From: a bacterium
Lineage (GTDB): Bacteria > Patescibacteriota > Microgenomatia > Daviesbacterales > UBA10151
Assembly: GCA_021786105.1 (NCBI GenBank)
Contig: JAJYNW010000005.1
Location: 52,537-116,536, forward strand
Direction: 5' to 3'
Length of the DNA: 64,000 nucleotides
A model generated the notes under the pieces. The model saw nothing but the letters and a program-made list of their open reading frames with translations, searched no databases and had not been told where the DNA came from. Position numbers and translations under genes: made by a program. This document shows positions 40,104 to 59,422 of the stretch, one piece after another. Each line of letters starts with the position of its first letter. Position 1 is the stretch's first letter.

Positions 40104-40105
40104 AA

Positions 40106-41347: not shown

Positions 41348-41348
41348 T

Positions 41349-42143: not shown

Positions 42144-42156
42144 AATACCCTCTAGT

Positions 42157-43182: not shown

Positions 43183-43186
43183 ATAG

Positions 43187-43192
43187 TATAAT
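43187..43192 (+). promoter_or_regulatory. TATAAT -10-like hexamer 6 nt upstream of GTG start 43199
   Basis: Exact TATAAT in a 16-nt intergenic gap; the spacing implies transcription would start at or next to the start codon. Confidence 0.25.
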
Positions 43193-43198
43193 AACTTT

Positions 43199-43993: not shown

Positions 43994-43994
43994 T

Positions 43995-46900
43995 TTAGTG
44001 TAGCTTTGGGGAATCGATTAAGAGGTTGGTAACTTTATATTGCCCTTCCGCATTTTTTTTAAAAGACACTTCAATTACTCCTTGATCCAAAGAAAATTCG
44101 GCTCGGTATTTAAACGTGGTCTCGCTCCGATTTACTGAAATTATCGGTTTTCCCAAGCTGACTAAAGGTCCGACCTTAGCATAATTACCATCTCTAATTT
44201 TTTCAAATTCTTTTCGATCAACTTTCTTTAGCAAGTCTGGGCTAAAGTCATGTGTTGTTTGCTCATAATTATTTAAACCGATACCAGCAATTAAATTATC
44301 CACTGTATAAGTTAAAGATTGGGTTCGTGGATTGACTAGGAACTTTGATGAGTCAAATTTAAAAATAGGTAATTTTAAGGTAACAAAAAGAAGAGTTGTG
44401 ACAACCAGAGTAAATATTATTACGTTTCTGTTAATGGTAGGTAATTTAACACTTGCTCTAGGTAAGTAAGAAAATGAACTGTTGAATCTCAGGTAATCTC
44501 TAATGACTACCCCATATACTACAAGGTAATAAAAAGCAAAAATGACAGTTAGATCTACTCTAAGGAAAACCCGATTAAAGGCGGACCCGGTTCCTGTGAT
44601 GCCGTAGAAAAATACCTGTCCCATAAAGTTCATAATATCGAAGAGAATAAGTATTAACCTATTTTTGGAGGTCGGATTTATTAAATAAAGCATTAACATC
44701 ATAAATACGAAATAAAAAGAATGGTTTTGGTATACACCTTTATTAAACATATAATGAGAAAAATAGATTAGCACAGCGGCTGATAAGAAATGAGGGAGGT
44801 CTTTTTTGGAAAATAACCAGTATCTAAAGAGGATAATCCCTGAAATAAGATAGAAAAAATAACCTTGAAAAATTTTAGGCGCTTGGTAAGTCCCTATCTG
44901 CCAATTCATCCAGTTTGACAGTTCCGGCGAACCGAAAATTTGAGGTTGATTTACGTGAAGATAATAAGTAACAATCCAGTTTAAATTCATCGCTAAACCT
45001 GACAATAATGGTGGCGATTCAATTAGGAATTTAATAACTCCGATATCAAAAGAAAACCTGCCGTTGGGTTGGGCGAGGATAAGTAACCAAGTAATAATCG
45101 GTACAAAAAGAAGCCCGATAATGAGTTTTATGGAGGATGGCAAAGTTTGAGAGAGTTTTTCCCGTAGGCTAAAAACTGTTAGCCCAAAAAGAGGAAATAA
45201 GGCCACTGGCTGCCATTTGATCGAAGCAGAAGTTCCTAGGAACAGTCCAGCAAGGAAATATTTTTTCTTAAATAAACAAATGATGGCAAGAATAATTGTG
45301 GGGGCTGTTAAGATATCGGTGGATGTTAAACTATTTGATTGCAGACCTAAAGAAAATGTAGTTAAAAAAATAAGCAGGATATTAGTTTTGTTAAGGCCCC
45401 CTTTCCTCTTAATGATTTTTCCGAGAAGGAGGATTAGTCCCATTGAAATCATATAAAAAACACTGGTGCTTATTTTAGTTGCCAAAGCGAATTGCCCAAC
45501 CACTTCGGGGTGAGAATCTTTGAAGCCAATAATGTTTTGATAAAGATGAGTAAAAGCGGTATAGATAACTGTGGAAAGCGGCGGATATTGATTGTCTGTT
45601 AAAGTGTGGTTGTAGAACGGATTGGCATGAAGAATGGCTACCCGATTGAAGCCCTCAAAAACACCCATATCTGCGGTTCCTTGGGAGGGAATTAAGCTAA
45701 AGTTCAGTAAAAGTATAAGTATGATAAGGAAAACTTTTGAATAGCGTGAAGCTTCTAGCTGTTTTTTAATAGTCGTTCTGTTTAAGACTATTGGAAGTTG
45801 CCACACAGTTAACAACAGGAAGATAGAGGCAAAGAAAAGCTTAAATACTTCTATGTAATTAGAACGCGTATCCGGTCCGACTCCGTTATTCCCGTAGGTT
45901 AAAAAAAGAATACTGAAAGCTAAAACATTGACTAATATTAAACGTACCTGGTTTTCTTTATTTGGCGAGATCATGAATGTCAGAATAGAAAAAATTACCA
46001 ACCATATGAGGTTACCTGCTGAAACTAGAGGGAAAAATACCAAAAATACCATATAGATAATAGAAATGAAATCAAAAAAAGTTGAGGAATCTACGTTTTT
46101 ACAATTTTGAAATTTTTTATACACTAAAAGATACAACAGTAAAAAAGTAAAAGTTAGGGATAAAAACGGGCTTGCTAGGATAGCAAGTGCAAAAGTGATG
46201 GTTAACCAAATAAAGGTATATGTTATTAGTTTTTTCTTTCCAAGGTATGGGCAAAAAATATGCTTTATGAAGTAAAATGAAGAAAAAAAGAGGACGCCTC
46301 CTGTTAATATGGAAGGTAGGATAGCAAGTGTAAGTTGGGAAGGTGTTAACAGATAATATTTCTGTAAATAACCTAATGAGTGATTCAATAGCCAGGGGAT
46401 ATTTAATACCTGGGACGATTTGGTGATAAAGAATGTTGGGGCTAAGACGTAACCATTTACATGAGCGATAGCGGCAAACAAGGTAATTAATGACAGGTTG
46501 AAGACTGTATTTAATTTTGAAGAAGATTTATTCGAAAAAATATATATTGAAAAAATAGGAGCCAAAATTAATAGAGTCCAGTTAAAGAGAATACTTATTA
46601 CATAAAATGTTATGGCTAGGCGGTACCGTTTTCTAAACAGGAATGATAATCCTAGAATAAAAACCGGAGCAATAAATAAGTCCCAGAATCCTAGTGCTAG
46701 ATTAGAAAGCATTAAAGAAAAGCTCAAAAAGTAAACGGTCGCAAGAGAAATTTTTTTAATCCGCCTTGTTTTTACTGACTTGAAGAAGTGAATGAACGAT
46801 ATAAAAGTTAAGAAATATGAAACCAGCAGAAGGGATTTTGATATTATCCACGAGTGTTGTTGGTAATAGAAATTTATGTCTTTGCTGAAAGGGAACCAGT

Positions 46901-47114
46901 GAAGCACAAAGGTGAAAAGAGCAGATGTTCCCGCGTTATACCTAAAAACCAACTCTAATATTGTGTCTACTGTATGTTTTTGTGTTTGAAAAGAAGATGG
47001 GTCGGTCAGTAAGTTATTAAAAAGAGCAAGTGTCGCTACTCCTGGATAGTTATAAAAGAGACTTATGCTTATGAGTATTGCTAAACCTGTAATTAAATAT
47101 AAGTAAATTTTCAT
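43995..47114 (-). CDS. giant (1039 aa) multi-module membrane protein: N-terminal polytopic module + DUF2029/GT87-like GT-C module + C-terminal soluble domain
   Basis: More than 20 hydrophobic segments. The central region has TSASIKWQPVALFPLFGL (K-x-x-P ... PLF, as in 16702 and 22102). The last ~170 aa are hydrophilic. Confidence 0.5.
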   Translation of the reverse strand: MKIYLYLITGLAILISISLFYNYPGVATLALFNNLLTDPSSFQTQKHTVDTILELVFRYNAGTSALFTFVLHWFPFSKDINFYYQQHSWIISKSLLLVSYFLTFISFIHFFKSVKTRRIKKISLATVYFLSFSLMLSNLALGFWDLFIAPVFILGLSFLFRKRYRLAITFYVISILFNWTLLILAPIFSIYIFSNKSSSKLNTVFNLSLITLFAAIAHVNGYVLAPTFFITKSSQVLNIPWLLNHSLGYLQKYYLLTPSQLTLAILPSILTGGVLFFSSFYFIKHIFCPYLGKKKLITYTFIWLTITFALAILASPFLSLTFTFLLLYLLVYKKFQNCKNVDSSTFFDFISIIYMVFLVFFPLVSAGNLIWLVIFSILTFMISPNKENQVRLILVNVLAFSILFLTYGNNGVGPDTRSNYIEVFKLFFASIFLLLTVWQLPIVLNRTTIKKQLEASRYSKVFLIILILLLNFSLIPSQGTADMGVFEGFNRVAILHANPFYNHTLTDNQYPPLSTVIYTAFTHLYQNIIGFKDSHPEVVGQFALATKISTSVFYMISMGLILLLGKIIKRKGGLNKTNILLIFLTTFSLGLQSNSLTSTDILTAPTIILAIICLFKKKYFLAGLFLGTSASIKWQPVALFPLFGLTVFSLREKLSQTLPSSIKLIIGLLFVPIITWLLILAQPNGRFSFDIGVIKFLIESPPLLSGLAMNLNWIVTYYLHVNQPQIFGSPELSNWMNWQIGTYQAPKIFQGYFFYLISGIILFRYWLFSKKDLPHFLSAAVLIYFSHYMFNKGVYQNHSFYFVFMMLMLYLINPTSKNRLILILFDIMNFMGQVFFYGITGTGSAFNRVFLRVDLTVIFAFYYLVVYGVVIRDYLRFNSSFSYLPRASVKLPTINRNVIIFTLVVTTLLFVTLKLPIFKFDSSKFLVNPRTQSLTYTVDNLIAGIGLNNYEQTTHDFSPDLLKKVDRKEFEKIRDGNYAKVGPLVSLGKPIISVNRSETTFKYRAEFSLDQGVIEVSFKKNAEGQYKVTNLLIDSPKLH

Positions 47115-47207
47115 CTGATTAATCCAAGCATACTATTACCGATAGCTTATCTAAAGTCAACCTATATAAAGCTTTAAAATTTTGTTAAAATCACCATAGC
47201 TACACCT

Positions 47208-48701
47208 ATGTCGTTTGTCTCTGTACAGTTTATAATATTTTTCTTCTTCGTTACGGCTCTTTATTTTGTCCTTCCCCATAAATTTAGGTGGTTTTTGTTG
47301 CTTATTTCCAGTGTGATTTTTTATATGGCCTTTATTCCTCAATATATCTTAATTCTTTTGGCACTTATAATTATCGACTATACCGCAGGAAGATTAATTG
47401 CTTCCTCCAAGGGACACAAAAGAAGGGTTTACCTGATAATAAGCATTCTTTCAACTTGTTTGACTCTTTTTGTCTTTAAATACTTCAACTTTTTTATTGA
47501 TAACTATGTTGATGTTGTACGTTTATTCCATGCGAAAAGTACAGTTAGACACTTGGATATTATTTTGCCCCTCGGATTATCCTTTCATACGTTTCAGAGT
47601 TTGGCTTATGTCATTGAAGTCTACAGAAAGAAACAGAAACCTGAGAAAAATTTTGGAATTTATGCGCTGTACGTTATGTTTTACCCGCAATTGGTTGCAG
47701 GGCCAATTGAACGTCCGCAAAACTTACTGCACCAATTTTATGAAAAACATCATTTTGAGTATGAGCGAATTGTTAGTGGCTTAAGATTAATGCTTTGGGG
47801 CGTTTTTATGAAGATTGTCATTGCTGATAGGTTAGCGATGATTGTCAATTATGTTTACAAAGACCCCACGAAATTTGAAGGGTTACCTTTGATCGTGGCA
47901 ACAATTGCTTTTGCCTTCCAAATTTTTTGCGATTTTGCCGGTTATTCCAATATTGCTATTGGAGCTGCAAGAGTTATGGGTTTTAACTTAATGAAGAACT
48001 TTAACAATCCTTATATTTCCAGAAGTGTTCAGGAATTTTGGACCAGGTGGCATATATCGCTTTGTACTTGGTTTAGGGATTACGTCTATATCCCTTTGGG
48101 AGGAAACAGGGTAGGTATCCCGCGATGGGCCATCAATATTATGATAGTTTTCCTTCTTAGCGGTTTATGGCATGGTGCGAATTGGACTTTTGTAATTTGG
48201 GGAGGTCTAAATGGTGTTTATATGATTATCCATCGTTTTTTGGGTAAATACTTTTATGCACTAGCTGATCTTTTTTTCCTGCCGAAACAACAGACATTGT
48301 TTAAAGTCGTGCAGACGGTCACTACTTTCTCTTTGGTCACTTTTTCATGGATCTTTTTTAGAGCACAAAATTTAAGTGATGCTTTGTATATATCCACGCA
48401 TCTTTTTAACCATCTAGGGAGAGATTTAGGTGGCTTAGTTAATATCAACGTGAACATGCTGCTGACAGGTATAGCTCAAAAAACAACTGTCTTGGGAATC
48501 CCTGCTTTCGATCTAATTATGGTGGTATTGGCCATAATCGGTATGGAAACAATCCTTATTAAACAAGAGTCTGTAGGACTGAAGAAGATTTTCTCCTCAA
48601 AACCGATATTTCTTAGGTGGGCCGCATATTACATTCTGATTTTCCTTATAGCCTATTACGTTACTACCCGCCAAGAACAATTTATCTACTTCCAGTTTTA
48701 A
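47208..48701 (+). CDS. MBOAT-family membrane O-acyltransferase (AlgI/DltB/PatA-like)
   Basis: FWTRWHISLCTWFRDYVYIPLGGNR and GLWHGANWTFVIWGGLNG (conserved MBOAT His) with about 10 TM helices. Confidence 0.85.
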   Translation: MSFVSVQFIIFFFFVTALYFVLPHKFRWFLLLISSVIFYMAFIPQYILILLALIIIDYTAGRLIASSKGHKRRVYLIISILSTCLTLFVFKYFNFFIDNYVDVVRLFHAKSTVRHLDIILPLGLSFHTFQSLAYVIEVYRKKQKPEKNFGIYALYVMFYPQLVAGPIERPQNLLHQFYEKHHFEYERIVSGLRLMLWGVFMKIVIADRLAMIVNYVYKDPTKFEGLPLIVATIAFAFQIFCDFAGYSNIAIGAARVMGFNLMKNFNNPYISRSVQEFWTRWHISLCTWFRDYVYIPLGGNRVGIPRWAINIMIVFLLSGLWHGANWTFVIWGGLNGVYMIIHRFLGKYFYALADLFFLPKQQTLFKVVQTVTTFSLVTFSWIFFRAQNLSDALYISTHLFNHLGRDLGGLVNINVNMLLTGIAQKTTVLGIPAFDLIMVVLAIIGMETILIKQESVGLKKIFSSKPIFLRWAAYYILIFLIAYYVTTRQEQFIYFQF

Positions 48702-48702
48702 C

Positions 48703-49941
48703 ATGAAGAAGGAGAAGTTGAATTCAGGAAGAGAAAGAGACAAGGATGTAAAAAGATTCCTGTTTAAACTGTCTATATTTCTTTTTCTACCTCTTGTCTG
48801 GATTATTGCTTCAGTGAACTCACTTCTTAATGAACCGATAGACATAAACCAAATCCGTTCTTGGGAATCGCTATCTGTTTTAGAAAAGAACGCTTTTTTA
48901 AAAGGTCCTTTTTACCCATATATGACCCTGCACAAAATTGAACAAGGAGATACGCCACATCCAAAGAGATTAGCGGTTGCTAAAGATGTTATATGGAAAA
49001 CTGATCGATATGGATACAGAAAGGAAGACAAGGGAATGGATAAATACGATGTTGTTATTATTGGCGACTCTCAGACGGCAGGCTCAACTTTAACTCAAAA
49101 CGATATGTTGACTGAGAAATTAGAAAAAGACTTAGGATTAACGACTTATCCCTACGCTCCTTCAAATATACTTTTTTATGCTCAAGATGAACGGTTTCAA
49201 AAGAATCCGCCTAAGATTGTAGTTTTAGCGTCAGCAGAAAAATTATTTATGAATATTCCGGATGTTGAAGGAGTAAAAAGTGCTTCTTTTATAGACCAAT
49301 ATTTGTCTCCTTTGGCTGCTAATAAGTGGGTTATAAATATGGCAGTGATTTTTGACCGGCTCAAGAAGAAATATTTCGTTGACTATTTTAGGGCGATGAT
49401 TTGGAGATTGCCGGAAGACATAAAACATTTGATGGCTATTTCACAAGGACAACAGGCTAAAGTAGCTAAAAGCGGAGATGTTAACCTAGGACCAGTAGTC
49501 GTTTCTCCGCAGGAGGTCAGAGAAGGGGAAACTAATAATATTAATTTAGCATTGGACGGGTCGATGGTTTTTTCATTGCAATCTGATGACGCTTATATCG
49601 AAGTTACAGATAGTGAGTTATATTGGCAAGTGCAAAAAATGCTTCATTATCAAAAGTATTTTAAATCTCAAGGTGTACGGTTTATTATTATGCCAATTCC
49701 CAACAAAGAAAATATTTACTGGGAGAAGGTTCCAAGAGGGAAACATCCCACTACAATTCCTCAGTTCATTGAAAAGGCTCGGGAAGTTGGGTTAGAAGTT
49801 GTTGACTTACAAACTCCGTTTGAAAAATTCCACCAAGAAAATCCTGAAGAGCTTCTATATAATATAGACGATACACACTGGAATGCCAGAGGGGCAGAGA
49901 TGGCTGCTTCAATTTTGGCGGAAGAAATTAAGAAAAAATGA
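48703..49941 (+). CDS. SGNH/DHHW-like extracytoplasmic O-acyltransferase partner (AlgJ/AlgX/PatB/DltD-like)
   Basis: N-terminal signal-anchor TM, VVIIGDSQTAGS (SGNH block I-like) and a C-terminal DDTHWNARGAEM (DHHW-type) motif. Placed immediately after the MBOAT gene with 1-nt spacing. Confidence 0.5.
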   Translation: MKKEKLNSGRERDKDVKRFLFKLSIFLFLPLVWIIASVNSLLNEPIDINQIRSWESLSVLEKNAFLKGPFYPYMTLHKIEQGDTPHPKRLAVAKDVIWKTDRYGYRKEDKGMDKYDVVIIGDSQTAGSTLTQNDMLTEKLEKDLGLTTYPYAPSNILFYAQDERFQKNPPKIVVLASAEKLFMNIPDVEGVKSASFIDQYLSPLAANKWVINMAVIFDRLKKKYFVDYFRAMIWRLPEDIKHLMAISQGQQAKVAKSGDVNLGPVVVSPQEVREGETNNINLALDGSMVFSLQSDDAYIEVTDSELYWQVQKMLHYQKYFKSQGVRFIIMPIPNKENIYWEKVPRGKHPTTIPQFIEKAREVGLEVVDLQTPFEKFHQENPEELLYNIDDTHWNARGAEMAASILAEEIKKK

Positions 49942-51053
49942 ATATATTAGTATTTTCATGGCGAGATCCAAAACACCCTTTGGCGGGCGGTGCTGAACAA
50001 GTTATGCACGAACATATGAAGGGGTGGATCTCCTCCGGCCATATGGTTACCCTTTTTGCATCATATACCCCGGGATTAAAAACAGAAGAGAAAATTGACG
50101 GAGTCCGGATCATTCGGATGGGGTATCAATACTGGGGAGTCCAATTGGCTGGCTTTTTATATTATTTAAAACATAAAGAGGAGTTTGATTTTATTGTTGA
50201 CCAATTCCATGGTTTGCCATTTTTTACTCCTTTATATGTCCGAAAGCCAAAATTGGCAGTAATTCAGGAGACTGCAAGAAAAGTTTGGTTTTTAAATCCC
50301 TTACCGCGACCCATAAACTGGTTAATAGGAATAATAGGTTACTTGGGAGAACCGTTCATCTTTCTAATTTATAGAAATATGCCATTCATGACAGGCTCGG
50401 ATTCAGCTAAAAAAGATGTGGAGAAAATGGGAATTTCGTCTAATCATATTGCTGTAGTCCCGCATGGAGTTATTGTTAAAAATCCACCCACATCCATTAA
50501 GAAAGAACCAAAACCTACAATTATTTTTTTGGGAGTTTTATCAAGGGATAAAGGAATTGAGGATGCATTAAAGTGTTTCAAACTTCTTTCTCAAGGAAGA
50601 GACTTCAATTTTTGGGTAGTTGGTAAACCGGAAACCGAAGAATATGGGAAAAAGATTGAAAAAATCACAAGCGCACTAGGGATGATGGGGAAAGTAAAGT
50701 TTTGGGGGTTTGTTTCACAGGAGAAGAAATTTGAACTTCTAAAAAGATCTCATATATTGGTAAATCCTTCTGTTAGAGAAGGATGGGGTTTGGTGAACAT
50801 TGAAGCCAATAGCATGGGAACCCCAGTTGTAGCCTATGTATCTGCAGGTCTTACGGATTCTGTAAAGAACGGTTTAAACGGGGTACTTTGCAGTAAAAAT
50901 ACTCCTGAGAATCTAACAGAAGATATTTTAAGAATCATAAGTAATGATAGCGAACTAAAAAAACTGCAAGAAGGGGCAGTTAAATGGAGCCGCAAATTTT
51001 CCTGGGATAACTCTGTGGAACAAAGTTTGCTGTTGATTGAAGGAAGAAGATGA
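49938..51053 (+). CDS. GT4 (GT-B fold) glycosyltransferase
   Basis: VNPSVREGWGLVNIEANSMGTPVVAY ... NGLNGVL motif. Confidence 0.75.
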   Translation: MNILVFSWRDPKHPLAGGAEQVMHEHMKGWISSGHMVTLFASYTPGLKTEEKIDGVRIIRMGYQYWGVQLAGFLYYLKHKEEFDFIVDQFHGLPFFTPLYVRKPKLAVIQETARKVWFLNPLPRPINWLIGIIGYLGEPFIFLIYRNMPFMTGSDSAKKDVEKMGISSNHIAVVPHGVIVKNPPTSIKKEPKPTIIFLGVLSRDKGIEDALKCFKLLSQGRDFNFWVVGKPETEEYGKKIEKITSALGMMGKVKFWGFVSQEKKFELLKRSHILVNPSVREGWGLVNIEANSMGTPVVAYVSAGLTDSVKNGLNGVLCSKNTPENLTEDILRIISNDSELKKLQEGAVKWSRKFSWDNSVEQSLLLIEGRR

Positions 51054-51997
51054 AAATTATAAGGAAAATCATTCCGTTTATTGTTGTAGGAGCCATATTT
51101 ACTTTTCTCTTTGAGAATATATTGAGGCAGTGGCATAGTATTACAAGTATCTCCTGGAATCTAAATCCCGGGAATTTAGCTCTTTTTATAATTTTTCTTT
51201 TACCTATTTATGCTATTGATGCACTTTCATGGCATTTGATAACCCGTGCTTTGGGAGCAAGAATTGACTATCTTAGTAATTTTAAATTATGGACTTTTTC
51301 AAACGCGGGAAGATTTTTACCAGGGTCTATTTGGCAATATGCAGGTAGGGTTTATTTGGCGCACCAAAAAGGGATGAGCAAGCCAAAGGCAACAACAGCT
51401 GTGGTTCTCGAAGCGTTGTTTGTGCTTTTACTTGGTTCAGTAATTATTTTGGCTACACTGACATTCTGGCAGTTACCAATTAGTATTATCCAAAACCGGA
51501 GAATGTTTACCTTAATTACTGCTGTCGGAGCGACGCTACTTTTATTATTAGTAATCCTACTTAGTAACAAGCTTATCGCAGGATATCTAATAGGTTTGGT
51601 GAAAAAGCTTACTAAAAAAGATGGTGCTATAGAAGAGACTAAAATTCCGATCTCTCAACTTCCACTAATTGCAGGAAGCTTTTTTCTGCAATTTTTGTTT
51701 GGAGGTTTAGTACTTTTCTTTCTTTCAAGGAGTGTTGTAGATCTATCTTCAAGTCTTATACCGGTGTTTATCGGAATATATGCTGCTTCTTGGCTTTTGG
51801 GATATATCACTCTTGTGGCACCATCGGGATTAGGTGTTCAGGAAGTTACACTAGCGACGTTACTCTCGTCGTATATGCCGTTTCCTGTAGCTGTGGTAAT
51901 TGCTATTTTACTTCGTATCTCTTTTCTTTCATCCGAAACATTAGCTTTGGTATTTAATTTATTAAGAAAGGCACAACTAGGTATAATAGATAAATGA
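51050..51997 (+). CDS. LPG_synthase_TM / flippase-like (UPF0104) membrane protein
   Basis: About 8 TM helices, with motifs LSWHLITRALGARI and FSNAGRFLPGSIWQYAGRVYL typical of the MprF-flippase-like domain often coupled to GT2 genes. Confidence 0.5.
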   Translation: MKIIRKIIPFIVVGAIFTFLFENILRQWHSITSISWNLNPGNLALFIIFLLPIYAIDALSWHLITRALGARIDYLSNFKLWTFSNAGRFLPGSIWQYAGRVYLAHQKGMSKPKATTAVVLEALFVLLLGSVIILATLTFWQLPISIIQNRRMFTLITAVGATLLLLLVILLSNKLIAGYLIGLVKKLTKKDGAIEETKIPISQLPLIAGSFFLQFLFGGLVLFFLSRSVVDLSSSLIPVFIGIYAASWLLGYITLVAPSGLGVQEVTLATLLSSYMPFPVAVVIAILLRISFLSSETLALVFNLLRKAQLGIIDK

Positions 51998-52761
51998 AAA
52001 GAAATGATTACCAACTTGAATATGCCTCAGGCGTGCCTGAGATGTACAACAAAAAATCCCGTGAACAAAAGGCCAGAAGAATGGTGAAGATTTTAGAGTC
52101 TTACTGGGGGAAAGAAAAGATGTCCCGGTTAACTTTATTAGATTTGGGATCCTCGACAGGTTTTATAGATAATATTTTAGCTTCCCATTTTAAGAGTGTC
52201 GTTGGGATTGATATTGATAAAGGAGCGGTAAAATTTGCTAAGGAGAATTTTAGAAGAAAGAACTTATCTTTTACTGAAGGAAATGCAATGAATCTTAATT
52301 TTCAGGATAGCACTTTTGATGTGGTAATTTGTTCTCATATTTACGAACATGTTCCGAGTTCTGCCAAACTTCTCTCGGAGATTCACCGGGTACTCAAGCC
52401 CGGAGGAACTTGTTTTCTGGCAGCGGTCAATAAATTGTGGCCACTGGAACCTCACTATAAATTATTCTTCTTGTCATGGATGCCTAAGAAATTGGCTAAT
52501 ATCTATATAAAGATTACCGGAAAAGGGAATTATTACTATGAAAACTTAAGATCTTACTGGGGATTAAAGGTGCTTACTAAGGATTTTTATATCGTTGAGT
52601 ACACGGACAAAATACTTCGTAGTCCTAGAATTTTCGGTTATGACGATGCTCTAAAATCAGGGAGTTGGCAGGAAAAATTTGCTTTTCTCCTATCTCCCTT
52701 GAGTAAGATTTTGTCACCCACATTTTTTTGGTTGTTAGTAAAAGAAGGAGAAATGAACTAG
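51994..52761 (+). CDS. class I SAM-dependent methyltransferase
   Basis: LLDLGSSTGF (motif I), VVGIDIDKGAVKFA and VLKPGGTCFLA (post-II). Confidence 0.7.
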   Translation: MKRNDYQLEYASGVPEMYNKKSREQKARRMVKILESYWGKEKMSRLTLLDLGSSTGFIDNILASHFKSVVGIDIDKGAVKFAKENFRRKNLSFTEGNAMNLNFQDSTFDVVICSHIYEHVPSSAKLLSEIHRVLKPGGTCFLAAVNKLWPLEPHYKLFFLSWMPKKLANIYIKITGKGNYYYENLRSYWGLKVLTKDFYIVEYTDKILRSPRIFGYDDALKSGSWQEKFAFLLSPLSKILSPTFFWLLVKEGEMN

Positions 52762-52765
52762 GGTT

Positions 52766-53749
52766 ATGAAAGCGTTTGTTACAGGAGCGACAGGTTTCAT
52801 CGGACAGAATTTAGTTAAACGTTTAATTGCTGATAGCTGGGAAGTGAGTGTCTTGATTAGGTCAAAAGGAAAGATGGGAGATTTGGATGGCAAAAAGGTA
52901 AATATTGTTTCCGGTGATTTAACTGATCTAAGTAAAGTAAAGAACGCCCTTAAAAAGAATGATGTGGTTTTTAATCTAGCAGCGGTATTAATGCACCATA
53001 AATTACCTGAAAAGAAATACTGGGAGACCAATGTTACGGGTTTAGAAAATTTATTGAAAATTTATCAAAACTCCAATATAAAGCGATTTGTCCATGTTTC
53101 TACAGTTGGTATATATGGACCTACAGGAGGAAAGATGCTTGACGAGTCATCTCCTATTCATCCCTCAGATATTTATTCAAGGACAAAAGCTACTGCAGAA
53201 AATTTATTATTCAGGTATTATAAAAAGACAGGTTTCCCGATGACTATTGTAAGGCCGACGATTGCTTTTGGTCCGGGTGATTTGCGCCCAGGTTTTTCAA
53301 ATCTTTTTCCACTGGTAAAAAAGAAACTTTTTATTCCGATAGGAGATGGGAAGAATTTTTTTCATACAGTATATGTAGAGAATTTAGTTCAAGGTTTAAT
53401 ACTTGCGGCGACTCATAAAAATGCTATAGGTGAAGATTTTATTATCGGAGACGATCCTTGCCCAACTATGGAAAAGCTAATAAGGACAATCGCTGAAGTT
53501 GAAGGAGTTACTTTATTCCCGCTCTCTTTGCCTCAGGATTTAGCTTTGCTAATAGGGAAAGCGTTTGATTTAGGAGATAAATTTAATATTCCTCAAGTAT
53601 TGAACTCAAAGAGAGTTAAATTTATTACCGAGAATAGAAAATACGATATTTCAAAGGCGAAAAAATTAATCGGGTACCACCCCTTTTTTGATCTAAAAAC
53701 TGGGATTCAAAAAACTTTTGATTGGTACCAAGAGAAGGGACTAATATGA
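52766..53749 (+). CDS. NAD-dependent sugar epimerase/dehydratase (extended SDR)
   Basis: MKAFVTGATGFIGQNLVKRL Rossmann motif; YSRTKATAE (YxxxK catalytic dyad). Confidence 0.8.
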   Translation: MKAFVTGATGFIGQNLVKRLIADSWEVSVLIRSKGKMGDLDGKKVNIVSGDLTDLSKVKNALKKNDVVFNLAAVLMHHKLPEKKYWETNVTGLENLLKIYQNSNIKRFVHVSTVGIYGPTGGKMLDESSPIHPSDIYSRTKATAENLLFRYYKKTGFPMTIVRPTIAFGPGDLRPGFSNLFPLVKKKLFIPIGDGKNFFHTVYVENLVQGLILAATHKNAIGEDFIIGDDPCPTMEKLIRTIAEVEGVTLFPLSLPQDLALLIGKAFDLGDKFNIPQVLNSKRVKFITENRKYDISKAKKLIGYHPFFDLKTGIQKTFDWYQEKGLI

Positions 53750-54999
53750 AAATCTGTGTTTTAACCCATACATTTCCCCGTAATGATAAGGATGTATCAG
53801 CGGCGTTCATGAAAGAATTTGCCGATGGTTTAGCTCAAAATGGCAATCAGGTAACAGTAATTACACCTTATGATCCCAAATTTTCCAGGAAAAATGATCC
53901 ATTTAAGGTAATTACCTATAAATATATTTGGCCGGATAGCCTACATCTATTAGGTTATTCACAGACAATGGAGGAGGATGTCAAACTTCGCAAGAGGGCA
54001 TATATGTTGTTACCGTTCATGTTACTTTTCTCGTTGATAACTTTAGTTAAGGTTATTAAGAAAGAGAGAATAGAACTTATCTCTGTCCACTGGATTTTAC
54101 CTAACGGATTAGTGGCTTTTATCGCTTCGCTAATTACAAAAGTACCGTATGTCGTAACTTTACCAGGAACAGATGTTTATCTGGCGAGTCGAATTAAGCC
54201 GTTTGGTTGGGTAGCGAAAATTATTGCTTTAAATGGGGCAGGAATTACATCAAACAGTTCGTATTTATTAAAAAGGTTGCTAAATTTAGGAATTTCTAAT
54301 AAGCCAACTCTAATTATTAGTTACCCAGCTGATGTGTCGAGATTTAAACCTTTGGAGGCTAATAAAAATCAATACAGAGAAAAATTTGGATTAGAAGTCA
54401 ATAATTTTGTTATTTTAGCGATTGGACGTTTAGTTTATAAAAAAGGTTTTGAATATCTTATAAAATCACTACCTGATGTTTTAAGAAAGCATACTAATGT
54501 ACGTCTTTTAATTGGTGGCGATGGGGATTTGAAGCCGGAATTACAGAAAACAGTTGAAAAAATGGGTTTGCAAGACAAAGTTATTTTTGCAGGGACGATT
54601 TCTCGGGATGAAATTTTAAACGTCTATAATTTGGCTGATGTGCTAGTGGCTCCTTCGGTAATAGATAAAAAGGGGAATGTTGATGGGGGACCGGTTGTGT
54701 GTTTAGAATCTATGGCTTGTGGGAAGCCGCAAATAGTTACTAATATTTTAGGGATGGCCGATGTGGTGGAGGATGGTGTAAATGGCTTTATTGTTCCAGA
54801 GAAAGACCCTCAAGCTTTAAGTGCAGCAATCGAAAAACTTGTTGTGTCTCCAAAACTTAGGAAAGAGATGGGAATAAAAAATCGGCAGCTAGTTACAGAG
54901 AGACTCGGAACTCAGTCTGTGGGGAAAATATATACTGATTTTTTCAACGATGTTTTAAAGAATCGAGGTGTAAAACAGAAAAAGCTTTCATATGCATAA
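53746..54999 (+). CDS. GT4 (GT-B fold) glycosyltransferase
   Basis: Start refined to ATG 53746 (MKICVLTHTFP; ATGA overlap with upstream). C-terminal region matches the GT4 pattern (APSVIDKKGNVDGGPVVCLESMACGKPQIVT). Confidence 0.75.
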   Translation: MKICVLTHTFPRNDKDVSAAFMKEFADGLAQNGNQVTVITPYDPKFSRKNDPFKVITYKYIWPDSLHLLGYSQTMEEDVKLRKRAYMLLPFMLLFSLITLVKVIKKERIELISVHWILPNGLVAFIASLITKVPYVVTLPGTDVYLASRIKPFGWVAKIIALNGAGITSNSSYLLKRLLNLGISNKPTLIISYPADVSRFKPLEANKNQYREKFGLEVNNFVILAIGRLVYKKGFEYLIKSLPDVLRKHTNVRLLIGGDGDLKPELQKTVEKMGLQDKVIFAGTISRDEILNVYNLADVLVAPSVIDKKGNVDGGPVVCLESMACGKPQIVTNILGMADVVEDGVNGFIVPEKDPQALSAAIEKLVVSPKLRKEMGIKNRQLVTERLGTQSVGKIYTDFFNDVLKNRGVKQKKLSYA

Positions 55000-57085
55000 G
55001 TTAAAACTTATTTCAGATTGGAAAATTGCCGTTGTGCTCAGTTTATTGTTTTTTGTGGTAGCTGTGATCACACTTCCTGATTATGGTATCAACTGGGACA
55101 CCATTAACCACTTACCTAGGGGGCAGGCCTACCTACATTATTTTTTGACAGGAAATAAAGACTATAACGACCTGCCTGAATGGAGTATATATTGGCAGAA
55201 CCCTCAATCGCTTTCGATAAATGCAAATTTACCCAGTGATGAAGTAAAAGGGCGTAGTTTTTATGAGAGTGTTGGTATGCCGTTTACTTGGATGATACAA
55301 CATGAGGGAGGAAGTAGTGGAGGCGGTCATCCTCCTTTAAGTGACATACTCTCCTCAGTATTTAATGTTGTCTTATTTCAAAATCTGGGAATAATAAATG
55401 ATATTGATTCGTATAGAGTTTATAGCATACTCCTTGCATCTTTATTGGTAGGTTTGATTTATAAGTGGGTTGCGTCAAAATATGGAAAGTTACCTGCATT
55501 AATATCTGCCCTATCTTTAGCGTTATATCCTCTTTTTTGGGCAGAATCTCATTTTAATAATGAAAAGGATATACCGGAAACCGTTTTTATATCATTTATG
55601 ATTTTCTTTTTCTGGCAGGGAATCGTTCAGGAGAAATGGAAGAAGGTTTTAATTTCTGGTTTATTTTTCGGTTTGGCTCTGGGTACGAAATTTAATGTCT
55701 TATTTGTCCCATTTATTATTTTGCCCTGGCTTACAATATATTGGTGGGGTAAAAAACAAGAATGGGAAAAAGGGTTTGGGAGATGGTTTCTTTCTAAACG
55801 TAGTCTATTTTTTTCTTCCGTTGCAGCACTTGCAATTGGCTCTGCTATATTTATTTTTTCTTGGCCTTATCTTTGGACGAATACAATCTCCCGGGTTGCC
55901 AAGGTGGTTGGGTTTTATAAAGAGATAGGCCTTACTGCTAATATCAATCAGAACTACGTTGGCCCATTTAAAATTAATACCTATCCCATTCAGTGGATTG
56001 CTTATACCACTCCGCCCATAATTTTAATTTTAACTTTAATTGGGATTATCTCTATCCCAAAGTTAATAAGAAAAGATAATGAAAAGCTTTCTTTATTAAT
56101 TTTGTTGTGGTTGGCAATCCCGATTTTGCGGGTTACAGCTCCCGGTACAACAATTTATGGTGGTATCCGCCAGATTATGGAGTATATTCCTCCGTTGGCA
56201 ATTCTTTCAGGTATTGGAACTGCAACTATACTTGGGCTTTTGAAGAAAAGGCTTTACCGGTTTATTGCTATTGGATTAATTGTTCTGGGATTTTCATTTA
56301 ACATTTATCGTCTGATATCTATTCACCCGAATGAAAATGTGTATTTTAATTTTTTAATTGGAGGTTTGAAGGGCGCCAAAGAGAGAAATATTCCTTCCTG
56401 GGGGAATACTTTTGGGGCAGCTTATAGAGAGGGAATTATCTGGATAAATAAAAATGCTGAGCCAGGTAGTTCGGTAGTAATGGCGCACGGTTTAATGCCA
56501 AACATACCCAAGATTTGGTTAAGGTCCGACCTGAACTTTACCAATAGTTTACGGAGTGGATATTTACGTCAGGGAGAGTATGCTATCTCTTTAACTTCCG
56601 AAGGAACAGATGATTCGTCGTACTATGACACTTACCTGTCTAAATTCATGAAACCAGTTTATGAGGTAAAAGTAGATGGTGTAGATATTTTGGAAGTTTG
56701 GAAAAATGATAATACTCATCTGATTTCCCCTTGGAATGAAGAAAATTTGTCGGGGGTAAAAATGACCAGAGATAATAATGGACTGACATTTGATTTGGGT
56801 CAGGTTGAGAGGGTATCGAGATTAGAAATTGATTATCAGGAAAGTAGTTGTCAGCCTTTAAGTTCCGGGTATGTGAGATATTCAGTTAACGGTAAAGATT
56901 GGGGAGAAAATGAAGGGAAGCTTCCTCAAAGTTGGAGAATAGCAACATTGGGTCAGCAACCAAAGGATGGAAAATTTTTAGAACCTTTTGTTGGTCAAGA
57001 AATTCGGTATATAAAGCTAGGCCTATCACCGCAAGATGCTTGTTTAAACAATGTAGTAGACTATAAAGTGTTTGCATTTAAGTAA
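54992..57085 (+). CDS. GT-C-fold membrane glycosyltransferase (ArnT-like) with C-terminal discoidin (F5/8 type C)-like domain
   Basis: TM1 then a DYGINWDTINHLPRGQAY loop and a multi-TM core. The last ~130 aa (LTFDLGQVERVSRLEIDY ... YSVNGKDWGE ... IRYIKLGL) follow the discoidin-domain pattern. Confidence 0.55.
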   Translation: MHKLKLISDWKIAVVLSLLFFVVAVITLPDYGINWDTINHLPRGQAYLHYFLTGNKDYNDLPEWSIYWQNPQSLSINANLPSDEVKGRSFYESVGMPFTWMIQHEGGSSGGGHPPLSDILSSVFNVVLFQNLGIINDIDSYRVYSILLASLLVGLIYKWVASKYGKLPALISALSLALYPLFWAESHFNNEKDIPETVFISFMIFFFWQGIVQEKWKKVLISGLFFGLALGTKFNVLFVPFIILPWLTIYWWGKKQEWEKGFGRWFLSKRSLFFSSVAALAIGSAIFIFSWPYLWTNTISRVAKVVGFYKEIGLTANINQNYVGPFKINTYPIQWIAYTTPPIILILTLIGIISIPKLIRKDNEKLSLLILLWLAIPILRVTAPGTTIYGGIRQIMEYIPPLAILSGIGTATILGLLKKRLYRFIAIGLIVLGFSFNIYRLISIHPNENVYFNFLIGGLKGAKERNIPSWGNTFGAAYREGIIWINKNAEPGSSVVMAHGLMPNIPKIWLRSDLNFTNSLRSGYLRQGEYAISLTSEGTDDSSYYDTYLSKFMKPVYEVKVDGVDILEVWKNDNTHLISPWNEENLSGVKMTRDNNGLTFDLGQVERVSRLEIDYQESSCQPLSSGYVRYSVNGKDWGENEGKLPQSWRIATLGQQPKDGKFLEPFVGQEIRYIKLGLSPQDACLNNVVDYKVFAFK

Positions 57086-57088
57086 TAT

Positions 57089-57688
57089 ATGAAATTTATA
57101 TCTTTTATTTGGCTAAAAGCTGCCTTTATTTTTAACCCAGTCCAGATGTTTTTTAACGGAAACTTTTGGGAGGTTTTTGCAAAAAAGTTTGGAAGCTACA
57201 CACAAAAAACTGTAGTGGATTTGGCTTGTGGCACAGGAGAGTTAAGAAAAAGTATAAAACCTAAAAAATATCTCGGAATAGATATTAATGCTGCCTATAT
57301 TGATTATGCCAGAAAGAACATCAAGAGTGAGAATACAAAATTTATTCTTGGAAATGCTTTAGAATTCTCCCTTCCGGAAAAGTTTGATATTGCCTTTTTA
57401 ATTGCAGCTGCTCATCATTTATCAGATCAACAGCTGCTAACCTTATTTTCAACAATTGAGAAGAACAAGATTAAAAATTTTATCCTTATAGATGACATTC
57501 CCCAAGGTTTTCTATCGAACATATTAATGTGGTTGGATGATGTTTTAGGAGGTGGAAAATATTTCCGACAGTTGGATGAGTTGGCGGATTTGGTGGGACG
57601 TAAATTTAAGATCGAAGATCAAGGGACTTTTTCGGCGCGGGGCTCTTTCTACAAGTACCGTTATATTGTTTCTTCCTCAAAAGCGTAG
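57089..57688 (+). CDS. class I SAM-dependent methyltransferase
   Basis: VVDLACGTGEL (motif I), YLGIDINAAYIDYARKN and FDIAFLIAAAHHL. Confidence 0.65.
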   Translation: MKFISFIWLKAAFIFNPVQMFFNGNFWEVFAKKFGSYTQKTVVDLACGTGELRKSIKPKKYLGIDINAAYIDYARKNIKSENTKFILGNALEFSLPEKFDIAFLIAAAHHLSDQQLLTLFSTIEKNKIKNFILIDDIPQGFLSNILMWLDDVLGGGKYFRQLDELADLVGRKFKIEDQGTFSARGSFYKYRYIVSSSKA

Positions 57689-58421
57689 AGGTCAATTTAT
57701 TAACTTTTCTCATCAATATAAGCTCGATCCAGAGCAAAGTTAGTTCTTTAAACGTAGAGAGTAAACGGCTGGGGTGAAAAAATTGTGAGTGGCCAAACCT
57801 TCTTTCGTAGTGATGTACTGAAACCTGACGATATTTCGCGCCTGCTTTTTGGGCTTTCTTCACAAGTTCCACGCATATAGATCCACTATTACTTCTTAGG
57901 TTAACTTTGCTAAGTAGACTTCTCCTGATTAGTCTAAAATCGCAATCTACATCATAAGTCGGGAGCCAAAACATCCAGCGGGTAACGAAAGAGTATAAAT
58001 TCCCAATAAGAATTCTATAAGTCGCGTCTTGCCGGGCCATTTTAATGCCGTTAACGAAATTTACATCATCGGTCATGAGAGTAAAGAGTATGGGGAGTTC
58101 TTTGACATCATACTGACCGTCACCATCAGTATAAAAAATTAAATCCTTGGTCGCAGTCTTAAAACCTGTTCTCAATGCTCCGCCATATCCTTGATTATGG
58201 GTATGAAAAACTGGTTTGAAATGAGGGTATTTCAGAGCCAACTTTTTTAATATTTCAGGACTGTTGTCTTTCGAACCGTCATCAACAACTATAACTTCAA
58301 AGTCATGAGTTAAAAGGCTTGCGGTTTCAATTGCATTTTCAACTAACTTTCCGATACTCTTTCCATCGTTATAACAAGGGAAGAAGATAGAGAGACTTGG
58401 TTTTCTTGTTGGGTTAGCCAT
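57606..58421 (-). CDS. GT2 polyprenyl-phosphate sugar synthase (DPM1/GtrB-like)
   Basis: LSIFFPCYNDGKSI, VIVVDDGSKDNS, GYGGALRTGF and YTDGDGQYD motifs. The basic low-complexity C-terminal tail is encoded antisense to the 3' end of the methyltransferase gene. Confidence 0.75.
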   Translation of the reverse strand: MANPTRKPSLSIFFPCYNDGKSIGKLVENAIETASLLTHDFEVIVVDDGSKDNSPEILKKLALKYPHFKPVFHTHNQGYGGALRTGFKTATKDLIFYTDGDGQYDVKELPILFTLMTDDVNFVNGIKMARQDATYRILIGNLYSFVTRWMFWLPTYDVDCDFRLIRRSLLSKVNLRSNSGSICVELVKKAQKAGAKYRQVSVHHYERRFGHSQFFHPSRLLSTFKELTLLWIELILMRKVNKLTSTLLRKKQYNGTCRKSPAPKKSLDLRS

Positions 58422-58427
58422 ACCTAA

Positions 58428-59366
58428 TTAAATTACTTTTTTAATAAAAGAGGAATAGTCAGATTTCCCTTTAGAGTGAACTAACATTTCTGCAAGAAGT
58501 CCAGTGGAAATAAATTGGATTCCGATAACCATCAGCAATATTCCTAGGAATAACAATGGTTGCCGGTATTGGATGGTTCCTGTTGTTATCCTTAGATAAG
58601 AAATATAGAGACCGATTAAGAATCCCAAAAAGAATGATATTAAACCAAAAGTTCCGAAGAAATGACCAGGTCTGCGAGTATAACCAGTGAGGAATATAAT
58701 TGTCAGGAGGTCTAAGATTCCCTTAATTCCTCTACTCCAGCCAAATTTAGTTTTACCGTATTTCCGCGCTCGGTGTTCGACTATCACTTCCCCGACTCTA
58801 AAATTTTGTTTAGCGGCAATGATAGGAATAAAGCGATAAAGTTCGCCATAAAGGTTAAGGTTATCGATCAGTTCTCTCCGGTAAGCTTTAAAACCGCAAT
58901 TGGTGTCATGTATCTTAATTCCTGTAAGCCTGCGGGTTAGGAAGTTAATAATTCGGGAAGGAATGACTTTCCCGATTGAAGGATCGTGGCGATTCTTTTT
59001 CCACCCTGACACCAGATCGTAACCTTCTTCAATCATATTAATAAACGAGGGGATTTCCTTAGGGTTGTCTTGGAGGTCAGCGTCTAAAGTGAAGATTATT
59101 TTACCTTCAGCATGATCAAAACCGACTTGGAGAGCAGCAGATTTACCAAAATTTCCTCGGAACCTAATAACTTTTACATTCCTATCATTTTGGTGAATTT
59201 TTTCCATAACCTGGAAAGTTTTATCAGTAGATCCGTCATCAATGAAAATAATTTCGTAGGTTTTCTTAAGTTGTTTGACGACCTCGAGGATTTCGGTATA
59301 GAGGATCTCTATGGAATCTTCTTCGTTTTTTGCTGGTATAATAAAGGACAACTCACAGCTTTTCAT
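58428..59366 (-). CDS. GT2 polyprenyl-phosphate glycosyltransferase, GtrB/ArnC-like with two C-terminal TM helices
   Basis: LSFIIPAKNEEDSI, IIFIDDGSTDKT, LDADLQDNP and CGFKAYRRE motifs, plus C-terminal hydrophobic helices (LLTIIFLTGY ... FLGILLMVIGIQF), the classic GtrB/ArnC architecture. Confidence 0.8.
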   Translation of the reverse strand: MKSCELSFIIPAKNEEDSIEILYTEILEVVKQLKKTYEIIFIDDGSTDKTFQVMEKIHQNDRNVKVIRFRGNFGKSAALQVGFDHAEGKIIFTLDADLQDNPKEIPSFINMIEEGYDLVSGWKKNRHDPSIGKVIPSRIINFLTRRLTGIKIHDTNCGFKAYRRELIDNLNLYGELYRFIPIIAAKQNFRVGEVIVEHRARKYGKTKFGWSRGIKGILDLLTIIFLTGYTRRPGHFFGTFGLISFFLGFLIGLYISYLRITTGTIQYRQPLLFLGILLMVIGIQFISTGLLAEMLVHSKGKSDYSSFIKKVI

Positions 59367-59422
59367 AAGATTGTTTCTTTATGCCTAATATCATATCATT
59401 ACAGGTGTGTAAAGTACATTAG

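Follow-up and report, generated by a model that had tools for sequence, protein, structure and literature searches.

A probable MBOAT-SGNH acylation cassette within a mosaic surface glycosylation island of a Microgenomates bacterium

Introduction

Do the closely packed genes at positions 47208-57688 of a 64-kb stretch of contig JAJYNW010000005.1, from a Microgenomates-type bacterium of the candidate phyla radiation (CPR), belong to one dedicated pathway? The whole stretch of 64,000 nucleotides is called the window below. The block in question begins with an MBOAT acyltransferase gene and the gene for its SGNH-type partner, followed by genes for glycosyltransferases, a putative lipid flippase, two methyltransferases and a sugar-modifying enzyme. 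An initial annotation had taken it for a dedicated module of ten genes that makes an acylated and methylated glycan and resembles mycobacterial lipoglycan biosynthesis. We consider the block to be, probably, one mosaic piece of a large Microgenomates cell-surface glycosylation island, with a PatA/PatB-like cassette of two genes that stands on its own within it. The most likely function of this cassette is O-acylation, probably acetylation, of a surface glycan. Bacteria of the CPR have not been cultivated; they possess very small genomes and grow attached to other cells, and the chemistry of their envelope is almost entirely unexplored. At least 64 kb is devoted here to one glycosylation island on a contig of at most ~0.94 Mb, i.e. 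~7% of its 942,606 bp, which may be most of the genome.

Gene content of the block

Nine open reading frames (ORFs), all on the + strand, lie within 47208-57688. There is no tenth; the initial annotation itself listed nine, and all of them are present at the positions that it gave.

47208-48701, + strand: MBOAT acyltransferase, 497 amino acids (aa)
48703-49941, + strand: SGNH partner, 412 aa
49938-51053, + strand: GT4a, a GT4 glycosyltransferase of the GT-B fold, 371 aa (Glycos_transf_1, 117 bits)
51050-51997, + strand: PF03706 protein (LPG_synthase_TM/UPF0104/PplT), polytopic, putative lipid flippase, 315 aa
51994-52761, + strand: MT1, class I S-adenosylmethionine (SAM) methyltransferase, 255 aa (Methyltransf_11, 89 bits)
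52766-53749, + strand: SDR, short-chain dehydrogenase/reductase of the extended type, 327 aa (Epimerase, 136 bits)
53746-54999, + strand: GT4b, GT4 glycosyltransferase, 417 aa from the ATG at 53746 (Glycos_transf_1, 147 bits)
54992-57085, + strand: GT-C glycosyltransferase (PMT_2/GT39-like), 697 aa
57089-57688, + strand: MT2, second class I SAM methyltransferase, 199 aa (Methyltransf_25, 48.8 bits)

The longest ORF for GT4b begins at a TTG at 53722; the gene call of the source contig has 417 aa. The junctions consist of a 1-nt gap, four ATGA overlaps of 4 bp, one overlap of 8 bp and two gaps of 3-4 nt. The genes are thus packed in an operon-like manner, and the translational coupling that had been proposed for them is possible. 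The 3' end of MT2 overlaps a convergent GT2 gene on the - strand (57606-58421) by 83 bp (57606-57688), on which the source-contig gene calls agree.

Domains were assigned with Pfam against the gathering score (GA) of each family, with NCBIfam against its equivalog cut-offs and by sequence searches of the PDB; transmembrane (TM) segments were located by a crude hydropathy scan. Pfam confirmed MBOAT, ALGX, the two GT4s, LPG_synthase_TM, Methyltransf_11/25 for both methyltransferases, Epimerase and PMT_2. The domain assignments of the initial annotation therefore stand, with the F5_F8_type_C domain of the GT-C as a sub-threshold match for which a structure model gives the beta-sandwich. None of the block proteins reached an NCBIfam equivalog cut-off. 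The GT4s, the SDR and the methyltransferases have no convincing membrane-spanning topology.

The MBOAT protein and its SGNH partner

The first protein matches the MBOAT family with 83.7 bits (GA 27) and contains the conserved histidines H282 (W-H-x-S-L) and H322 (W-H-G), which align with those of DltB. DltB structures (8jem/6bug, E 6.5e-27) are its only sequence matches in the PDB, and DltB is also its best NCBIfam model (TIGR04091, 158.9 bits against a cut-off of 375). Towards the C-terminus it has two extra hydrophobic helices (425-454 and 467-485), and it ends in F492-I-Y494-F-Q-F497, which fits the FXYXXF acyl-shuttle hexapeptide. This motif is terminal in 79 of 83 MBOAT ORFs that adjoin homologues of the partner. 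In acyl-CoA-using MBOATs the FXYXXF peptide is fused to the enzyme, whereas DltB lacks it and depends on the DltX microprotein and the DltC carrier (PMC12148441). The same study showed that the motif tyrosine of C. jejuni PatA is auto-acetylated from acetyl-CoA and that the acetylated peptide then donates to PatB; the C-terminus of NgPatA reads FIYANF. Because of the fused hexapeptide and its retention in 79/83 ORFs, we assign the MBOAT, on its sequence, to the acyl-CoA-using PatA/AlgI type and not to the Dlt type.

The partner has an N-terminal TM helix (about residues 16-43). Its match to ALGX (PF16822, 67.8 bits, GA 26.5) covers only residues 311-412, which correspond to profile positions 30-133 of 268. 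Its PDB sequence matches are AlgJ (E 6.8e-13), PatB1 and AlgX only, all through the PNKEN...DDTHW region in its last 100 residues; no match to PatB was found in this search, and none to the DHHW family (PF14286) in Pfam at E <= 0.01, the motif reading DDTHW. Block I is G-D-S123 (GDS 121-123), preceded by a beta-strand, and N334 is also present. Block V is D389-D390-T-H392-W (DDTHW 389-393), located 20 residues from the C-terminus, with D389-D390-x-H392-W invariant. The partner models as a membrane-anchored extracytoplasmic SGNH fold with the canonical S...H order, i.e. Ser123 first and D389/H392 last. The predicted triad is Ser123, His392 and Asp389 or Asp390, the comparison with the model being one of fold only.

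The AlgX/DHHW proteins are circularly permuted SGNH enzymes with the block order H-S-G-N and a serine ~95-135 residues after the DxH (PMC9487903). The region that matches the C-terminus of our partner stands at the N-terminal side in AlgJ, PatB1 and AlgX. In the partner the chain stops 20 residues past His392 and the nucleophile is the upstream G-D-S123, therefore it is not permuted. We rejected its membership in the permuted AlgX/DHHW group on this block-order test. The initial annotation was right about the DDTHW motif and about the SGNH fold, which the predicted structure bears out, and its DHHW/AlgX label has to be dropped. The Ser-first family is a large one: at least 508 clusters (50% identity) from many phyla are found at E <= 1e-30, and 3259 clusters at E <= 1e-10, mostly with full-length matches.

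Taken together, the two genes encode what a PatA/PatB-type pair is expected to have, namely an MBOAT domain with the conserved histidines and a C-terminal hexapeptide on extra TM helices, next to a membrane-anchored SGNH-fold protein with a predicted Ser-His-Asp triad. We think it very likely that they form an acyl relay that runs from the MBOAT over Tyr494 and Ser123 to a glycan hydroxyl outside the cell membrane. As judged from the motifs, the MBOAT would take an acyl group, most likely acetyl, from cytoplasmic acyl-CoA and load it, on the outer side of the membrane, on Tyr494 of its own FIYFQF peptide. The acyl group would then pass from Tyr494 to Ser123 of the anchored SGNH protein, which would esterify the glycan.

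A Dlt-like D-alanylation (DltB/DltD) of a teichoic-acid-like polymer might be read from the DltB matches of the MBOAT, both in NCBIfam and in the PDB, all the more as DltD, too, belongs to the SGNH family and has an MBOAT for its partner (PMC9487903). However, the DltB score is far under its cut-off, the fused FXYXXF and the extra helices are absent in DltB, and the partner has no DltD match in Pfam or the PDB. An AMP-binding (DltA-like) protein was not found among the Pfam-scanned ORFs of at least 200 aa, a scan that did not include ORFs of DltC or DltX size. Dlt-type D-alanylation was rejected on the scores and missing matches, and we regard it as extremely improbable.

The pair in other genomes

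Among 80 species-representative genomes with a partner homologue, the MBOAT gene is directly upstream of the partner in 76, directly downstream in 2 and undetected in 2, so that the two are adjacent in 78/80. These genomes belong to Thermodesulfobacteriota, Bacteroidota (including Pontibacter), Omnitrophota, Planctomycetota, Elusimicrobia and CPR. In none of the 80 are orthologue-level GT4a, PF03706, MT1, GT4b or MT2 genes nearby, and a GT-C paralogue occurs in only one of them (L007, 446 bits). It is the MBOAT-SGNH pair alone, and not the block, that recurs across phyla. The pairs always sit in polysaccharide loci, with differing glycosyltransferases.

This distribution also bears on the nature of the acceptor. 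The pair could be a peptidoglycan O-acetyltransferase, functionally a PatA/PatB, which has come to lie among glycosyltransferase genes by chance. Like PatB, the partner has a TM helix at its N-terminus, its SGNH blocks in canonical order and DxxH in block V, and the C-terminal motif of the MBOAT is of the PatA type, as in the FIYANF of NgPatA. Against this stand the matches of the partner, which are to AlgJ, PatB1 and AlgX with none to PatB, and its genomic settings: homologous pairs are always in variable polysaccharide loci, with three tandem copies in a Smithellaceae genome, a pattern that would be unexpected if all acted on one universal substrate. Moreover, close relatives that have the rest of the island carry the pair only sporadically. 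We find a peptidoglycan substrate improbable and keep to the PatA/PatB-kind cassette acting on a surface glycan.

The tandem copies are found on a Smithellaceae chromosome (OY820932, L090 6529-14576) as three MBOAT-partner pairs in a single polysaccharide locus; for two of the partners, the second (362 aa) and the third (361 aa), no match to Pfam is recorded. This arrangement suggests divergent paralogous acyltransferases for different acceptor positions or acyl groups. Another recurring arrangement, of three genes, is seen in seven loci of Thermodesulfobacteriota or 'delta proteobacterium' (L008, L010, L018, L028, L033, L039 and L041), where an SDR gene directly follows the MBOAT and partner genes. 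It scores 68-83 bits to the SDR of the window and lies at ~11.1-11.3 kb in locus coordinates (complete loci).

In three other CPR loci (L004, L007 and L092) a paralogue of the window's GT-C is found at 2-5 kb from the MBOAT-SGNH pair, a proximity that hints modestly that acylation and this GT-C subfamily are functionally linked. Large F5_F8_type_C proteins (845-906 aa, with strong domains) adjoin the pairs of two of these loci (L004 5785-8505 and 20455-21245; L092 12524-15061). Discoidin/CBM32-like modules seem recurrent in CPR MBOAT-SGNH loci.

The block in relatives and the surrounding island

The reverse question, i.e. whether the other genes occur without the pair, was addressed in metagenomic loci: 29 loci with a GT-C orthologue (at least 600 bits) and 6 kb or more of sequence upstream of it, and 33 loci for the genes downstream. 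GT4a has an orthologue upstream of the GT-C in 22/29, MT1 in 15/29 (mostly on the opposite strand), GT4b in 10/29, the SDR in 8/29 and the PF03706 gene in 4/29. The MBOAT and SGNH genes are found in none of the 29. Downstream of the GT-C, an orthologue of the GT2 gene 58428-59366 occurs in 28 of the 33 loci and one of the GT2 gene 60439-61497 in 23. Two Daviesbacteria-like loci (L087 and L088) contain the order GT2-GT4a-PF03706-MT-SDR-GT4b-GT-C without MBOAT and SGNH. In L087 GT4a comes right after the equivalent of the GT2 gene 41313-42143, and in L088 one EamA-family gene stands between the two. The upstream gene order of the window, GT2-GT4-ManT2-Wzx-GT2-GT4a, recurs in L087, L088, L104, L115, L116, L157 and L166.

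Only the closest relative (L002/L003) has all nine genes, and in the same order, with a partner that is 52-55% identical. Its flanks are equally collinear, so this synteny does not single out the block. The synteny expected of a dedicated module is therefore largely lacking: the block is intact in L002/L003 and split everywhere else. Co-directionality is unremarkable as well, since the + strand carries almost every gene of the window. The nine-gene block is bounded by strand switches only and is not a discrete conserved module.

The conserved island reaches past the block on both sides. The flanking genes are as follows.

37071-43993, + strand: upstream island, with a GT2, a GT4 (37928), a PIG-V-like GT-C, a Wzx-like protein (40091-41347), a GT2 (41313-42143), a variable TPR protein and a 264-aa protein (assigned with Pfam)
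43995-47114, - strand: 1039-aa membrane protein with ~17 TM segments and a weak GT87 match (19.4 bits, below GA), divergent from the MBOAT gene
57606-58421, - strand: GT2 (Glycos_transf_2)
58428-59366, - strand: GT2 (Glycos_transf_2)
59423-60451, + strand: GT2 (Glycos_transf_2)
60439-61497, + strand: GT2 (Glycos_transf_2)

The backbone is GT2(37071)-GT4(37928)-PIG-V-like GT-C-Wzx(40091)-GT2(41313)-GT4a-[variable slot]-GT-C(54992)-GT2(58428, - strand)-GT2-GT2. Of the nine genes, GT4a and GT-C are thus backbone, and PF03706, MT1, SDR, GT4b and MT2 are variable decoration genes. The MBOAT-SGNH pair, together with the TPR, 264-aa and 1039-aa proteins, is an insertion between GT2(41313) and GT4a. 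A spacer of 93 bp, rich in AT, separates the genes for the 1039-aa protein and the MBOAT. The 1039-aa protein is absent in L002/L003, where a DUF5667 gene occupies the slot, and has a homologue in L089 (401 bits). The downstream GT2 genes are candidate polyprenyl-phosphate-sugar synthases that could supply the GT-C enzymes.

This island is conserved in Microgenomates-type CPR and fills the whole window, which contains ~17 GT-C-like genes (PMT/PMT_2, GT87, PIG-M/PIG-V-like, PTPS_related and YfhO), 12 GT2, 4 GT4 and 2 Wzx-like flippase genes. Apart from one TPR protein, no ORF of the window matched a Pfam family outside glycosylation. We found no relevant description of GT-C-rich glycosylation islands of CPR in the literature.

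Two further observations concern the less familiar proteins of these islands. Three ORFs of the window, 11699-15163 (+ strand), 18570-20543 (- strand) and 23475-25247 (+ strand), encode proteins of 1154, 657 and 590 aa with 9-14 TM segments and no Pfam match; they may represent further divergent membrane proteins similar to GT-Cs or to polymerases. In the 1154-aa protein the first TM helix is followed by a non-membrane stretch of ~460 residues. DUF5667 proteins (~160-185 aa) recur in the variable slots of relatives (L002 7888-8439, L087 10969-11517, L089 2695-3231 and 9307-9798), and there is none in the nine-gene block of the window.

We can now return to the proposal that the nine genes form one dedicated pathway for a single acylated and methylated lipoglycan, comparable to those of mycobacteria. 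It draws on the operon-like packing with overlapping stop and start codons, on the identical gene order in L002/L003 and on the GT4, GT-C and methyltransferase types, which also occur in mycobacterial lipoglycan pathways. However, the flanks in L002/L003 are collinear too, MBOAT and SGNH are adjacent without the other seven genes in 78/80 genomes, and the 29 metagenomic loci, like L087 and L088, all have other genes of the block but no MBOAT-SGNH. No gene reaches a mycobacterial equivalog cut-off, and the mycobacterial methylglucose lipopolysaccharide is a cytoplasmic product to which soluble acyltransferases add the acyl groups. A single pathway is unlikely in our view, and we favor a cassette inserted in a mosaic island.

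The remaining enzymes

No other gene of the block comes close to the GT-C in conservation. It has over 965 homologues, the best 120 of which show 49-67% identity along their full length; some, from Daviesbacteria/Patescibacteria, bear the name GT39. The protein has the properties of the PMT_2/GT39/ArnT group: a PMT_2 match of 52.5 bits (GA 26.1), a polytopic N-terminal domain with ~9-11 TM segments up to residue 444 and, just after TM1, an invariant N-W-D36-T-I-N-H loop that carries the conserved acidic residue of the first outer loop. No solved relative was found by sequence, the best PDB profile match having an E of 0.098. The extracytoplasmic C-terminal region models as ending in a CBM32/discoidin-like beta-sandwich (~585-697, ~110 residues), i.e. 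the galactose-binding-like fold of F5/8 type C domains; the F5_F8_type_C match in Pfam is 19.9 bits against a GA of 28.2. The only two cysteines, C620 and C684, are both invariant and therefore fit an extracytoplasmic disulfide.

Since the GT-C matches PMT and PMT_2 and has relatives named GT39, it could be a PMT-like protein O-glycosyltransferase. The locus would then decorate S-layer or pilin-type proteins, and the pair would acetylate a protein-linked glycan. GT-C and GT2 form the enzyme pairing of polyprenyl-phosphate-sugar-dependent glycosylation, and the ~17 GT-C-like and 12 GT2 genes of the window agree with such a role, as does the fact that a phosphoglycosyltransferase and the typical Wzy polymerase/ligase set were not identified. 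However, the PMT match covers only residues 136-258 and does not reach family-specific resolution. A MIR domain is absent; a CBM32-like glycan-binding module is found at the C-terminus in its place, which suggests a carbohydrate acceptor. The window also encodes two Wzx-like flippases, and no protein substrate is indicated by the data. Protein glycosylation thus appears quite unlikely, and a carbohydrate acceptor for the GT-C remains our preferred reading.

GT4a, a gene of the island backbone, has only generic GT-B matches in the PDB (glycogen synthase, MshA, PglA). Its stop codon is overlapped by the start of the PF03706 gene (ATGA, 4 bp), whose product matches LPG_synthase_TM with 77 bits (GA 33.4), has ~8 hydrophobic segments and gave no match in the PDB sequence search. 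The PF03706 gene directly follows GT4a also in L002/L003, L087-L089, L093, L100, L103 and L166. PF03706 is the flippase domain of MprF and is known both as a separate protein and in fusions with domains of the GT-A, GT-B or methyltransferase type (bioRxiv 10.1101/2022.03.11.483950). A stand-alone PF03706 protein next to a GT4 is also what is seen in gpgSDF of P. aeruginosa and hexSDF of C. difficile, which consist of a GT4, a deacetylase and a UPF0104 protein and make a glycosylated membrane lipid whose translocation has been proposed (PMC12713373). Neither GT4 of the block is a GpgS-type synthase by the NCBIfam model NF053787 (GT4a 47.7 and GT4b 41.1 bits, cut-off 480), and Pfam found no deacetylase domain (GpgD/HexD) in the block.

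The SDR carries G7ATGFIG (G-x-x-G-x-x-G), S112-T-V-G-I-Y-G and Y137-x-x-x-K141. The S-T-V-G-I-Y-G stands at what we take to be the position of the Asp-Glu pair of 4,6-dehydratases, and this pair is absent. For this reason the SDR is more likely an epimerase or a reductase, to judge from its motifs. As regards the substrate, matches are generic: 'putative oxidoreductase', UDP-glucuronic acid 4-epimerase-like proteins and dTDP-glucose dehydratases in the PDB (~70-79 bits, E ~1e-21), and HpnA as the best NCBIfam model (146 bits, cut-off 368).

MT1, which lacks TM segments, is an accessory gene of variable occurrence, and relatives mostly encode it on the other strand. In the closest relative its slot is taken by a 512-aa tandem double class I methyltransferase (L002 13305-14843, L003 13296-14834). 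MT2 is lineage-specific, with an orthologue in L002/L003 only (222 bits) and in 0/33 metagenomic loci. Its absence beside the GT-C elsewhere would fit a recent insertion.

Proposed scheme and significance

How could these enzymes work around the acylation cassette? A scheme of cytoplasmic assembly, flipping and GT-C action outside has, in our opinion, an even chance of being correct. The soluble SDR and methyltransferases would modify sugar precursors, and the GT4s would add sugars to a lipid-linked acceptor at the cytoplasmic face. Flipping of the product would fall to the PF03706 protein, the Wzx-like protein at 40091 or both. Outside, the GT-C would transfer or extend sugars, using polyprenyl-phosphate sugars from the flanking GT2s, while its CBM32-like domain would hold the glycan. 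The topological logic of the initial annotation, which placed the GT4s at the cytoplasmic face and the action of the GT-C and the SGNH partner outside, is sound. The identities, motifs and folds of the proteins and the statistics of their gene neighbourhoods are shown, whereas the acyl donor, the sequence of steps and the acceptor are inferred; a secondary wall polymer, a lipoglycan and the glycan of a glycoprotein are the candidates for the last.

Several points weigh against this picture. Gene spacing is the sole basis for an operon structure, since promoter and terminator consensus sites in 43500-60000 (46 and 12) are not above those in shuffled sequence (52.8 and 12.0). The location of MT1 on the opposite strand in relatives means that its co-transcription is not conserved. 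GT4a is independent of the PF03706 flippase, being present in 22/29 loci against 4/29. No initiating phosphoglycosyltransferase for the GT4s was found among the ORFs of at least 200 aa of the window, all of which except ORF 82-684 were scanned with Pfam. Finally, it is possible, given their togetherness in L002/L003, that the nine genes are a lineage-specific functional unit.

The locus is an ordinary, if rich, CPR surface-glycan locus of known parts, and current concepts are unchanged by the findings. Its interest lies in the division between backbone and swappable cassettes, in the unusually conserved lectin-bearing GT-C and in the AlgJ-like sequence with unpermuted SGNH order. The conserved backbone genes indicate a core polymer of the envelope. 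Variation of the surface is probably driven by the swappable genes for O-acylation, O-methylation and extra sugars, for instance in recognizing hosts or as a defense against phages. The MBOAT-SGNH pair offers a clean, testable case of the recently established acyl-tyrosine relay.

A bolder idea joins two of these elements. The Ser-first AlgJ-like partner could be a third, unpermuted class of MBOAT partners, maybe ancestral to the permuted AlgX/DHHW proteins, and in this CPR lineage it could acetylate a previously unknown surface lipoglycan, with a PF03706-flipped glycolipid anchor that is extended outside by the lectin-bearing GT-C. That both linked parts hold is a speculation that we consider unlikely. 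If true, it would mean a lipoteichoic-acid-like, Microgenomates-specific envelope polymer with the near-universal GT-C, at 50-57% identity, as its core synthase.

Comparison with known systems

With PatA/PatB (PMC12148441) the present pair shares the separate MBOAT and SGNH genes and the FXYXXF on extra C-terminal helices. It differs in that the partner has no detectable similarity to PatB, its block V resembling that of AlgJ (DTHW), and in that it is found in variable polysaccharide loci and not in a peptidoglycan-acetylation cluster. AlgI/AlgJ/AlgX and PatA1/PatB1 (a DHHW protein, acting on secondary cell wall polysaccharide) likewise combine an MBOAT with an extracytoplasmic SGNH-like transferase on a polysaccharide. 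The partner has a significant profile match to AlgJ, PatB1 and AlgX through PNKEN...DDTHW, and Pfam files it under ALGX. In contrast to the permuted AlgX/DHHW proteins, it is Ser-first and matches 104/268 ALGX positions. It also lacks the carbohydrate-binding module that AlgX has, and there is no AlgF. As for Dlt, the MBOAT homology, a Ser-first SGNH partner and the logic of an acyl-Tyr relay are in common; here, however, the shuttle motif is fused to the MBOAT, the partner does not match the DltD family and nothing DltA-like was found among the Pfam-scanned ORFs of at least 200 aa.

The direct coupling of a GT4 gene to that of a stand-alone PF03706 protein is shared with gpgSDF (glucosamine-phosphatidylglycerol) and hexSDF, and by analogy suggests that a glycolipid may be synthesized at the inner leaflet and then translocated. 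However, a deacetylase is missing here, GT4a orthologues mostly occur without PF03706, and the flippase role of GpgF is itself only proposed. The GT4a-PF03706 pair is thus analogous to these systems and not a member of them.

Three-component extracytoplasmic glycosylation uses a GT2 polyprenyl-phosphate-sugar synthase, a flippase and a GT-C, as in ArnC/ArnEF/ArnT, GtrB/GtrA/GtrC and CsbB/GtcA/YfhO. The PMT_2/ArnT-like GT-C, the small GT2s conserved alongside it (28/33), the flippase candidates nearby and the dominance of GT-C and GT2 in the window all recall such systems. In contrast to them, no GtrA-family flippase was seen, and the GT-C of the window has a CBM32/discoidin-like C-terminal module, which ArnT, GtrC and YfhO are not known to carry.

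The likeness to mycobacterial pathways is generic, consisting in the participation of GT4, GT-C and SAM methyltransferases. The methylglucose lipopolysaccharide is made and acylated in the mycobacterial cytoplasm by soluble acyltransferases, and phosphatidylinositol mannosides are acylated by PatA, an acyltransferase of the cytoplasmic face that is unrelated to MBOAT. We know of no use of an MBOAT-SGNH pair in the acylation of lipoarabinomannan or phosphatidylinositol mannosides. The NCBIfam models give no equivalog-level match either (MshA 79 bits against 462, MSMEG_0565 52-57 against 260, phthiotriol methyltransferase 49 against 300), and the proposed mycobacterial resemblance comes down to this general co-occurrence of enzyme types. 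It is among the bacterial MBOAT-SGNH acyltransferases that the pair finds its place, since by its sequence it has those of their features that can be tested in silico.

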